64,000 nucleotides of DNA from Escherichia coli (GTDB lineage Bacteria; Pseudomonadota; Gammaproteobacteria; Enterobacterales; Enterobacteriaceae): the NCBI RefSeq assembly GCF_050920415.1, contig NZ_CP169309.1; one strand, written 5' to 3'. This document shows positions 9,844-11,549 of this stretch, piece by piece. The notes under the pieces were generated by a model that ran no database searches, was not told the origin of the DNA, and worked only from the letters and a program-made list of their open reading frames with translations. The translations under genes and the position numbers were made by a program. How positions within the stretch are numbered: position 1 is the stretch's first letter; every line of letters starts with the position of its first letter.

Positions 9844-9936
9844 TATATCAATCCATTATTTATATATAAAACAGCATCTATCTTTCGTGATGGTAAAGCA
9901 TTAGCATTGTATTGTAATCATGACAAGGAATGTTTT

Positions 9937-10575
9937 ATGCGGTTATTTATTAATGTGATAATTATAGTTTCGATCAGTCAATGCGTGAATGTATTTGCTC
10001 AAGATAATGTCATTCGCTATCCCTGGCGATATGGACGTATTTCTTTAAATGAGAATAATGAGTTTGTGCCTCAAATTATTCATATGCGTGATGATATCTA
10101 CGGCGTGGGTGAAGCTGGTGCAAGCCTTAACGATGCGAGAATGGCGCAAAGTGGTGTCACCGTGAGGCTTAGCGTTATACAGCAGGGGCAGGTGGTGAAT
10201 GCTTTACTGGATTTCTACAATAGCAATAATCAACCTGCTTATATATTTGAAGGTGGTTTGATGCCTTGCAATAAAGCCTTTGACATCACAACAAGCAACA
10301 TTGTCCTTGATGGGATGTGTGGAATTTATGATGGGGTCGATGGCTGGCAAGTTATTCCTGCGGGTGAGCATTATAAAGAATCGTTTTCACTCACTCAGGC
10401 TTTTGAATTCTTGCCGGGAAAACATCATTATAAAATTAATGCCGGAAGTTTTATCATCAGAGTCGGGGATGATATTTTTGCAAGAGAAGATGCCGAAAGC
10501 ATTCTTTTTGATTTGATTAACTGGCGATATGGCTATGTGCAAAAAGTTATGAAAGGGTGTCGAAGGGGGATTTGA
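9937..10575 (+). CDS. Hypothetical secreted protein (212 aa, low-GC islet)
   Basis: ATG at 9937 with AAGGAA ribosome-binding site 7 nt upstream; predicted signal peptide MRLFINVIIIVSISQCVNVFA; low-GC coding sequence (about 40% by eye); no family recognised. Confidence 0.6.
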   Translation: MRLFINVIIIVSISQCVNVFAQDNVIRYPWRYGRISLNENNEFVPQIIHMRDDIYGVGEAGASLNDARMAQSGVTVRLSVIQQGQVVNALLDFYNSNNQPAYIFEGGLMPCNKAFDITTSNIVLDGMCGIYDGVDGWQVIPAGEHYKESFSLTQAFEFLPGKHHYKINAGSFIIRVGDDIFAREDAESILFDLINWRYGYVQKVMKGCRRGI

Positions 10576-10760
10576 TGGCAGGATATTATGCTCTGTATGA
10601 ATACTCAGGCGCTGACATAATTGATGAGTATGATATTTACTCAAACCAGGTCTCGATTGATCTTAATGGTGACGAGTTAGCGCATACGGAGTCATATCAG
10701 TGGCGTATTGATAGTGGAATGATCCCGCAAAAATTCAGCGTTCAGGGACTCGCTGAATGA
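10575..10760 (+). CDS. Hypothetical small acidic protein (61 aa), translationally coupled to the upstream gene
   Basis: TGATG stop/start overlap at 10573-10577 and a purine-rich ribosome-binding site (AAGGGGGA); Asp/Glu-rich composition. Confidence 0.45.
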   Translation: MAGYYALYEYSGADIIDEYDIYSNQVSIDLNGDELAHTESYQWRIDSGMIPQKFSVQGLAE

Positions 10761-10797
10761 TTAGTCCTCTACCTGCTTGCCAGATACAGAGGCGCGG

Positions 10798-11382
10798 ATG
10801 AATTTATCAAGCGTATTCAATCAGCTTTTAATCTCATTTGCTCTTGCCGGGACGTTGATATTAAGCATCTATCTCATGGAAGCTCACTACCCACGTTTCA
10901 GGAAGCCAATTGCGCTCTTTTACTTCTTTTTAGCGATTTATACCAGTTATGCTGCCGTTCAGGAGTATGAGTACCACCGCAATAGCTTGACTACGCTCGC
11001 AAAAGTTTCTTCGATTCGTTATACCAGTAATTTTAAGCGTAGCGCCTCGCACTCCTGCAATTTACTGCGGGGAGGAAGGATTGATTGCTCGGGGCTGTAT
11101 GCCTATGACCTGACCTGGCAGATTGACGGTAAGACATGGAATTTGCATGTTGAGGACAAGCGTATAAAACCAGGAATCACCATGTGCGTGAAGGTTGTAA
11201 AAGATCGCCCCGCCATCGGGAAACCCTGTGAAAACGTGTTTTTCAATATCAGCCCTTTGCCGATTCTGATAGCTATATGGGCAATAAGCGCATTTATATT
11301 TGCGGTCTTACTCCTTCACCAACTAAAAAAATGCCGCGAATGGAAGCACGCCAGCAAGGAACGTGGAAAAATTGGCCATTAG
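10798..11382 (+). CDS. Hypothetical inner-membrane protein (194 aa, 2-3 predicted TM helices)
   Basis: ATG at 10798 with GAGG 7 nt upstream; hydrophobic segments LLISFALAGTLILSIYLM, IALFYFFLAIYTSYAAV and ILIAIWAISAFIFAVLLL. Confidence 0.55.
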   Translation: MNLSSVFNQLLISFALAGTLILSIYLMEAHYPRFRKPIALFYFFLAIYTSYAAVQEYEYHRNSLTTLAKVSSIRYTSNFKRSASHSCNLLRGGRIDCSGLYAYDLTWQIDGKTWNLHVEDKRIKPGITMCVKVVKDRPAIGKPCENVFFNISPLPILIAIWAISAFIFAVLLLHQLKKCREWKHASKERGKIGH

Positions 11383-11482
11383 AAGTCAAAGAAAGAGTGC
11401 GATGTAAGGTGATTCATAGAAAATTTCAGATACCGTGAGCCAAAGGATTATCAGTTCTGAAATGATTTAATATCATCCCTCG

Positions 11483-11498
11483 CTGGATATCTATCCAG
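11483..11498 (+). promoter_or_regulatory. LexA (SOS) box of the ruvAB operon
   Basis: ctggatatctatccag fits the CTG-N10-CAG LexA operator, about 50 bp upstream of ruvA. Confidence 0.8.
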
Positions 11499-11549
11499 CA
11501 TTTTTTTATCATACAGCATTATCTTTGATTCATTACGCAGGAGCGTCAT

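Follow-up and report, generated by a model that had tools for sequence, protein, structure and literature searches.

In the standard layout of a type VI secretion system (T6SS), a vgrG gene is followed by the gene of an effector and then by that of an immunity protein. The C-terminal metallopeptidase toxin of VgrG2b from Pseudomonas aeruginosa is reportedly an HExxH enzyme that is associated with the spike, acts in the periplasm of the target cell and is countered by a periplasmic immunity protein, and a transthyretin-like module is said to lie ahead of the toxin. Effector-immunity pairs and orphan immunity genes of the T6SS are already well known; the pair of protein families described here was found in no curated library or paper. 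It was exposed by the spacer between yebB and ruvA in a 64,000-nucleotide stretch of DNA from Escherichia coli strain MFDS1022581 (contig NZ_CP169309.1; hereafter the window, with all positions counted from its first nucleotide). In the reading that we favour, with fair but far from full confidence, the first gene of this spacer (gene 1) is an orphan that codes for an immunity-type inhibitor of T6SS toxins of the aspzincin-like kind and has probably been inactivated here, and the variable block around it is an old alternative haplotype of the locus.

The combination of HExxH and GTxD is the signature of the aspzincins (MEROPS family M35). Peptidases of M35 are synthesized with N-terminal pro-peptides that inhibit them (PMC11985622). 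In AsaP1 of Aeromonas salmonicida (PDB 2X3A/2X3B/2X3C) the inhibitor is the N-terminal pro-domain of the peptidase itself, whereas at the loci described here the inhibitor-like protein has a gene of its own. Gene 1 is like the periplasmic immunity proteins of T6SSs in its homology to proteins in the immunity slot (seven of seven contexts) and in its signal peptide, and like known orphan immunity genes in standing alone without an effector nearby. It differs from known T6SS immunity genes in sitting at a fixed core-genome position across genera, outside any T6SS or immunity island, in belonging to a secreted family that is missing from Pfam, NCBIfam and PADLOC, and in being frameshifted in the window.

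Two open reading frames are fragments of one gene

The spacer holds three plus-strand open reading frames (ORFs) of 212, 61 and 194 residues (9937–10575, 10575–10760 and 10798–11382, respectively), with the start of the second overlapping the stop of the first as TGATG. A first-pass annotation, made from the letters alone, had read them as three genes. The three ORFs do exist on the same strand, but the genes are only two, the first being split by a one-nucleotide deletion: the 212- and 61-residue ORFs are two fragments of one 274-residue gene. Homologues of the 212-residue ORF are 273–274 residues long, and their final 61 residues align with the 61-residue ORF. In a DNA alignment, a T is missing after position 10540, where the window reads GTGC-AAAAAG and E. 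coli N96, 2013C-4282 and 24A16CRGN010 as well as E. fergusonii read GTGCTAAAAAG. Residues 1–201 of the first ORF are native and residues 202–212 out of frame, while the 61-residue ORF equals native residues 214–274; tblastn with the intact protein returned two high-scoring segment pairs, at 9937–10533 and 10542–10757. Gene 1 is a single ORF in E. fergusonii, and three annotated proteins under the block were found only in the genome of the window itself (100% identical), the 18 other E. coli carriers having two. A separate 212-residue E. coli entry is present in the AlphaFold Protein Structure Database (AFDB; A0A0L7AEN3); the truncated allele therefore probably occurs in more than one record and is probably not a one-off assembly error.

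The product of gene 1 starts with MRLFINVIIIVSISQCVNVFA followed by QDN, which comprises a hydrophobic core and an AxA-like cleavage site with the cut between VFA and QDN. Via this signal peptide it is predicted to be Sec-exported and periplasmic, in line with the first-pass description of the 212-residue product as secreted. The NCBI Prokaryotic Genome Annotation Pipeline (PGAP) starts gene 1 at an ATG inside yebB (9712), for a product of 287 residues here and of 349 in the remaining E. coli carriers; it also cuts yebB down to 187 residues, leaving an antisense overlap of 93–132 nucleotides with gene 1. Since the other gene callers give a product of 273–274 residues and the signal peptide begins at 9937, the latter is the likelier start and that at 9712 probably an artefact. 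Proper annotation would thus be a single frameshifted coding sequence (CDS) from 9937, and neither three hypothetical proteins nor a 287-residue ORF overlapping yebB.

Gene 1 is probably inactive in the window, because the exported fragment stops at residue 201, losing the conserved C-terminal motif of the family, and the 61-residue remainder has no signal peptide. In the yebB–ruvA clade this motif takes the form [YR]SNQ.[SD]I..[DN]G and is located in the 3′ part of the gene. AGGGGG lies 6–7 nucleotides ahead of the ATG of the 61-residue ORF, and separate translation of this piece, with a product that would stay cytoplasmic, is conceivable. Among the intact Escherichia alleles, the ratio of nonsynonymous to synonymous substitution rates (dN/dS) of gene 1 was 0.10–0.43, values that indicate apparent purifying selection.

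A secreted family encoded behind vgrG

None of the three ORFs had a match in Pfam, NCBIfam, PADLOC or PHROGs at E ≤0.001, consistent with the first-pass annotation, which had recognized no family. A profile of six close homologues of gene 1 was then compared with 1.84 billion representative proteins at a cut-off of E 1e-3. Of the 41 matches, about 35 were distant proteins of 260–320 residues with signal-like leaders and 18–27% identity, their E-values ranging from 5.5e-17 to 4e-4 with the profile and from 1e-9 to 1e-20 in pairwise tblastn. Hydrophobic N-terminal leaders run throughout the family alignment (A6), and the motifs KYGYG, NI.LDYLG, LN.AY.FLPG.H.Y.IGS and F.IR[ST]NQV.I.IDG are common to the family. 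The alignment of 37 members found no match in the curated libraries at E ≤0.001, Pfam returned nothing for any of the 37, and the family profile found nothing relevant among PDB sequences.

The genomic contexts of seven independent members were read (L012, L013, L014, L015, L021/L020 from E. coli, L024/L025 and L026), and in all seven a VgrG is followed by an HExxH protein and then by one to three tandem family members. VgrG was identified by the Pfam domains Phage_GPD, Phage_base_V and Gp5_C in L021 and L024 (the latter with PAAR upstream) and by its beta-helix repeats where the contig held only the end of the protein; all of these VgrG proteins share a conserved tail ending in VRLL.Q.IDMI.GGV.E. 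At L015 (1863–4843), three tandem paralogues of 307, 281 and 303 residues, with 28–41% mutual identity, follow one vgrG-effector pair. Tandem arrays of this type are typical of immunity genes. Neither the L015 nor the L021 T6SS cluster had a megablast match in complete E. coli genomes. The profile and tblastn matches make homology of gene 1 to this T6SS-linked secreted family highly probable, and the family members have the position and the compartment of an immunity protein.

The HExxH proteins that precede them are 257–309 residues long and carry the motifs STLCHE[IL]SHF, GxGTxD and NxYNxExYF; the one at L021, from E. coli, has 287 residues (7002–7865) and is followed by a family member of 284 residues. 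Among PDB sequences, the profile of these putative effectors matched only aspzincins, namely peptidyl-Lys metalloendopeptidase (1G12; E 0.007) and AsaP1 (2X3A; E 0.03), in either case with the alignment on the active-site helix; in Pfam, the matches to Aspzincin_M35 and Tox-MPTase2 were weak and sub-threshold. The VgrG2b structure was not among these PDB matches, and whereas the peptidase of VgrG2b is fused to VgrG, that of the present loci is a separate gene after the conserved tail of VgrG. A literature search found no paper that links the T6SS with aspzincin or M35. The toxins described in a preprint on the T6SSs of Shiga toxin-producing E. coli are limited to Rhs-fused ones of the MPTase4 and M91 types and are unrelated.

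Predicted fold of the gene 1 product

AlphaFold2, run on the 37-sequence alignment, produced a model of the gene 1 product with a predicted local distance difference test score (pLDDT) of 75.8 and a predicted template modelling score of 0.70. The model suggests a beta-sandwich (residues ~24–176) followed by a helix and a confident C-terminal hairpin. When it was compared with the PDB by Foldseek, the top four matches were all chains of AsaP1, and in three dimensions the model was closest to the zymogen of the aspzincin AsaP1 and to BsuPI, an intracellular proteinase inhibitor of Bacillus (PDB 3ISY). Identity in these structural alignments was 10–14%, and relative to the AsaP1 pro-domain and BsuPI the gene 1 product carries an extra C-terminal region (residues ~180–274). 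Fold matches in AFDB included many uncharacterized proteins of Enterobacteriaceae, sponge proteins whose annotation names a lysine-specific metallo-endopeptidase domain, and proteins with a BsuPI domain; the Pfam BsuPI profile itself matched none of the 37 family members.

Two independent routes thus converge on one enzyme class, the effector by its sequence and the downstream partner by its fold, and the family protein, as modelled, looks like the inhibitor module of the aspzincin class. That the gene 1 product acts as an immunity protein or peptidase inhibitor can be proposed with moderate confidence. The first-pass label of unknown function is narrowed, for gene 1, to homology with a T6SS-linked secreted family, profile search and modelling having supplied both the distant relatives and a usable model; for the third ORF the label still stands.

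P3, a small inner-membrane protein

The second gene of the islet encodes the 194-residue protein P3, with hydrophobic segments at residues ~6–29 and ~146–177 and a weaker one at ~38–55, which bears out its first-pass description as a membrane protein with several Cys. Its central domain (~60–150) has four invariant Cys, and the general plan of its family consists of one or two N-terminal hydrophobic segments, a four-Cys domain of about 90 residues, a further transmembrane segment and then a basic tail; the positive-inside rule would place the Cys domain in the periplasm. Relatives of P3 were found only in Escherichia, Superficieibacter and unnamed contigs. In NCBIfam, in PADLOC and in a profile search of the PDB, P3 returned only noise, such as cytochrome c3 matches driven by Cys content.

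In 11 of 15 cluster representatives of the P3 family, the protein continues into a conserved C-terminal domain of about 75 residues (LYRIY...LL.ET...YRL...C.NY.VRSRKGRRK), which is missing in the window, in its close E. coli homologue P0007, in E. fergusonii and in one unnamed contig. The tail of the block that follows the gene (11383–11472) was considered as a remnant of this extension, and the similarity (KERVRCKVIHRK against K.KV.C..Y.VR.RK) is weak and unconvincing; an eroded remnant is possibly what it is. The ORF of P3 is open in the window, in three E. coli strains and in four E. fergusonii loci, and dN/dS among the Escherichia alleles, on few substitutions, was 0.53–0.91.

P3 was also considered as an obligate partner of gene 1, and this was ruled out, as each occurs alone: Superficieibacter has P3 homologues immediately upstream of ruvA but no gene 1 there, and Pseudocitrobacter vendiensis has gene 1 without P3. 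In Escherichia sp. E1V33 the slot of P3 is taken by a different membrane ORF of ~228 residues (L022, ~4850–5540), with several hydrophobic segments and a Cys-rich C-terminal part, for which hhalign found no relationship to P3 (probability 4%). P3 is therefore regarded as a small inner-membrane protein that is independent of gene 1 and C-terminally truncated in Escherichia; that it is a second immunity-type membrane protein is a guess.

Extent of the variable block

Between 7943 and 13180, the window has the gene order yebC, ruvC (plus strand), yebB (minus strand), the three plus-strand ORFs, ruvA and ruvB. With yebB at 9241–9843 (minus strand) and ruvA starting at 11550, the spacer measures 1,706 bp at a GC content of 0.413, against 0.502 for the whole window, and the 212-residue ORF has a GC content of 0.404 and 0.37 at third codon positions; the size of ~1.7 kb and the AT-richness noted at first pass are thus borne out. 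The limits then given to the islet, 9844 and 11549, have to be moved at both ends. On the left the variable block enters yebB, where nucleotide identity to K-12 is 63–77% over ~9477–9857 and 93–98% in the 3′ part of the gene; on the right it ends at 11472, 10 bp ahead of the LexA box of ruvAB, and homology to K-12 is back from 11473. The block, spanning ~9477–11472, and the adjoining promoter region comprise the following features.

9477–9843, minus strand: divergent 5′ half of yebB (YebB residues ~1–122), an allele travelling with the islet
9844–9936, no strand: AT-rich intergenic region (GC ~0.36) from which yebB and gene 1 diverge
9937–10575, plus strand: 5′ fragment of gene 1 (signal peptide and native residues 1–201, then 11 out-of-frame residues and a stop)
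10540–10541, plus strand: site of the one-nucleotide deletion (missing T) that splits gene 1, from the DNA alignment
10542–10760, plus strand: 3′ part of gene 1, read in the shifted frame, with native residues 203–274 and the 61-residue ORF at 10575–10760
10798–11382, plus strand: gene 2, encoding P3, the 194-residue inner-membrane protein
11383–11472, no strand: non-coding tail of the variable block
11473–11549, plus strand: conserved ruvAB promoter region with the LexA box, outside the variable block

The region at 9844–9936 presumably holds the promoters of both yebB and gene 1, with promoter-like matches to consensus only. The LexA box of ruvAB, CTGGATATCTATCCAG at 11483–11498, is intact as first described and is identical among the four taxa aligned (the window, K-12, E. 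fergusonii and Pseudocitrobacter); the segment that contains it, 11473–11549, has 98.7% identity in 5,416 of 5,426 complete E. coli genomes. A second LexA-like palindrome, CTGTATGAATACTCAG at 10593–10608 in the 3′ part of gene 1, is not kept in the allele of 2013C-4282 and probably arose by chance.

Several neighbouring intervals vary as well. An IS621 element of the IS110 family of insertion sequences (IS) lies between ruvB and znuB (13257–14533; transposase CDS 13449–14429); it is present in strain N96 and missing in K-12 and in the carriers 2013C-4282 and 24A16CRGN010. About 125 bp of the aspS–nudB interval of K-12 (L002, 312–436) are missing at 7476/7477, with the result that the annotated nudB overlaps with the end of aspS. 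The gap between ruvC and yebB holds a gene for a PstS-like substrate-binding protein in E. coli 24A16CRGN010 (L009, 1842–3350) and on contig L003 (3753–5246), and a GDSL lipase gene in Superficieibacter electus (L018, 2803–3582). The whole ruvC–ruvA interval behaves as a hot spot of accessory genes.

A rare alternative haplotype

The islet was found in 19 of 5,426 complete E. coli genomes, with 96.1–100% identity and always between yebB and ruvA, while 5,416 of the 5,426 matched only the final 77 bp of the query, that is, the ruvA promoter. In K-12 MG1655 the spacer is 274 bp long, not the ~0.9 kb given at first pass, and contains yobI, a small stress-response gene. The K-12 form occupies the same chromosomal slot and has the same ruvAB LexA box on its right as the islet form, yet apart from the last 77 bp there is no detectable similarity between the two; yobI is absent from the form in the window, and the two forms carry different 5′ halves of yebB. 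A search of the E. coli genomes with 9480–9860 found the islet-type yebB 5′ allele at ≥95% identity in the same 19 genomes only and at 90–95% in one further genome, the remaining 1,085 matching genomes being at ≤80%.

Beyond E. coli, the yebB–ruvA interval also holds gene 1 in many assemblies of E. fergusonii, in Escherichia sp. E1V33 (a cryptic Escherichia) and in P. vendiensis, the last two being the only matches in a scan of ~100,000 species-representative genomes that was limited to two peptide patterns. A homologue with 52% amino-acid identity occupies the same place on the metagenome contig L003, from another enterobacterium. On the same contig, just downstream of this intact homologue, 6836–6978 is a short partial duplicate of its C-terminal region (52–62% amino-acid identity over ~30 residues).

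The ORF list of 9477–11472 contains no integrase or transposase; at the borders of the block no IS, tRNA or direct repeat was found, and the nearest IS (IS621) lies beyond ruvB. At the left border, divergence is graded and lies within yebB. From aspS to ruvB (~4800–12700, starting at yecD/aspS), the flanks have 98–100% identity to E. fergusonii CP057243.1 (L007), while past ruvB, from znuB on, E. fergusonii CP057243.1 and E. coli are ~81% identical; the profile of identity indicates, for these sequences, a haplotype shared by E. coli and E. fergusonii with a putative breakpoint of recombination at the 3′ end of ruvB. The block is thus a rare old alternative haplotype, exchanged among Escherichia lineages by homologous recombination, and not a mobile cassette. 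The N-terminal half of YebB in the window has 89.3% identity to that of Pseudocitrobacter and 79.5% to that of K-12 (K-12 against Pseudocitrobacter, 77%), and the C-terminal halves are identical between the window and K-12. Because the N-terminal half of the islet form is nearer to Pseudocitrobacter than that of K-12 is, the islet form is probably the older state and the K-12 form a replacement.

Discussion

In the mechanism proposed here, an HExxH effector would ride on VgrG into the periplasm of a neighbouring cell and cleave an envelope substrate, and the secreted family protein would bind the peptidase and block its active site in the manner of the AsaP1 pro-domain or BsuPI. With no effector beside it or elsewhere in the 64-kb window, the yebB–ruvA copy would count as an orphan immunity gene that protects against attackers armed with such effectors. 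A wider proposal, which we offer tentatively and with less confidence than the orphan immunity gene itself, is that the VgrG-linked HExxH...GTxD proteins and the secreted family form an undescribed split-zymogen pair of the T6SS, consisting of a peptidase stripped of its pro-domain and a free-standing, pro-domain-like inhibitor. The yebB–ruvA copies would then be anciently fixed orphans that provide standing protection in a few lineages of Enterobacteriaceae.

Several observations weigh against an orphan immunity gene. Immunity is deduced from homologues at 18–27% identity, and tblastn found no effector, VgrG or second family member in the 64-kb window. The sequence link between the effector and the aspzincins is weak (E 0.007–0.16) and falls chiefly on the active-site helix. 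On the side of structure, the model obtained from a six-sequence alignment reached a pLDDT of only 30, and the family profile, with E as high as 10 allowed, found neither AsaP1 nor BsuPI among PDB sequences. The structural output does not list which residues of AsaP1 align, and we infer that the match concerns the pro-domain rather than the catalytic domain from the predicted beta-sandwich and the parallel match to BsuPI. An assembly error in this lineage could still be the source of the frameshift. Finally, the yebB–ruvA clade is a branch of its own, has a C-terminal tail that sets it apart and keeps a stable place in the chromosome from genus to genus; a housekeeping role, or some other one in the periplasm, would suit these features as well.

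The last point leads to the alternative that survives best, although we consider it unlikely: gene 1 would encode a resident periplasmic protease inhibitor or envelope protein unrelated to the T6SS, directed, for example, against aspzincin-type proteases of the host or the environment, much as ecotin protects against serine proteases, and its T6SS-linked relatives would reflect separate recruitment of the same inhibitor fold. Such a role would account for a stable position in at least four taxa with no effector nearby, for purifying selection, for a distinct clade at 18–27% identity to the T6SS-linked members, and for a fold like that of general protease inhibitors. It sits poorly, however, with the finding that all seven distant relatives whose contexts were read are placed as immunity genes in a vgrG-effector island. 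Gene 1 is, moreover, dispensable, being absent from 99.6% of complete E. coli genomes and from the K-12-type locus, and the two-peptide-pattern scan found it in only 2 of the ~100,000 species representatives; it is frameshifted here, and the overall pattern suits an accessory defence gene better than a housekeeping one.

Less probable still is that both genes are decaying relics without present function in Escherichia, hitch-hiking with the flanking essential or repair genes. The frameshift, another truncated variant of gene 1 (P0005), and a P3 that lacks the C-terminal domain kept by 11 of 15 relatives and evolves at a dN/dS of 0.53–0.91 are what decay would leave behind, but gene 1 is intact in 18 of the 19 E. 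coli carriers and in E. fergusonii, with a dN/dS of 0.10–0.43, and the ORF of P3 is open in every Escherichia carrier examined. Very improbable, finally, is the reading of the islet as a cassette of three genes that was gained horizontally and inserted between yebB and ruvA, a reading to which a GC content of 0.41 against 0.50, a presence in only 19 of 5,426 E. coli genomes and the lack of any curated family match had pointed: the genes are two rather than three and also occur apart, the borders have no integrase, IS, tRNA or direct repeats, the left one is graded inside yebB, the block replaces the yobI-containing K-12 spacer instead of interrupting it, and the same arrangement recurs in other genera. 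Of the first-pass suggestion of an acquired or strain-variable cassette, the strain-variable part and the low GC content hold, and the cassette is given up.

What had appeared as a mysterious islet of three genes is thus, in the reading preferred here, a dimorphic core-genome locus with one broken and one truncated gene, and it shows an ancestral accessory segment surviving, via homologous recombination, as a rare allele common to E. coli and E. fergusonii. The main value of the locus lies in the effector-immunity family pair of Enterobacterales that was exposed by tracing the relatives of gene 1. If confirmed, this pair would represent a new class of periplasm-acting T6SS toxin, and a clear example of an immunity protein that works like, and is perhaps derived from, the pro-peptide of a zymogen.

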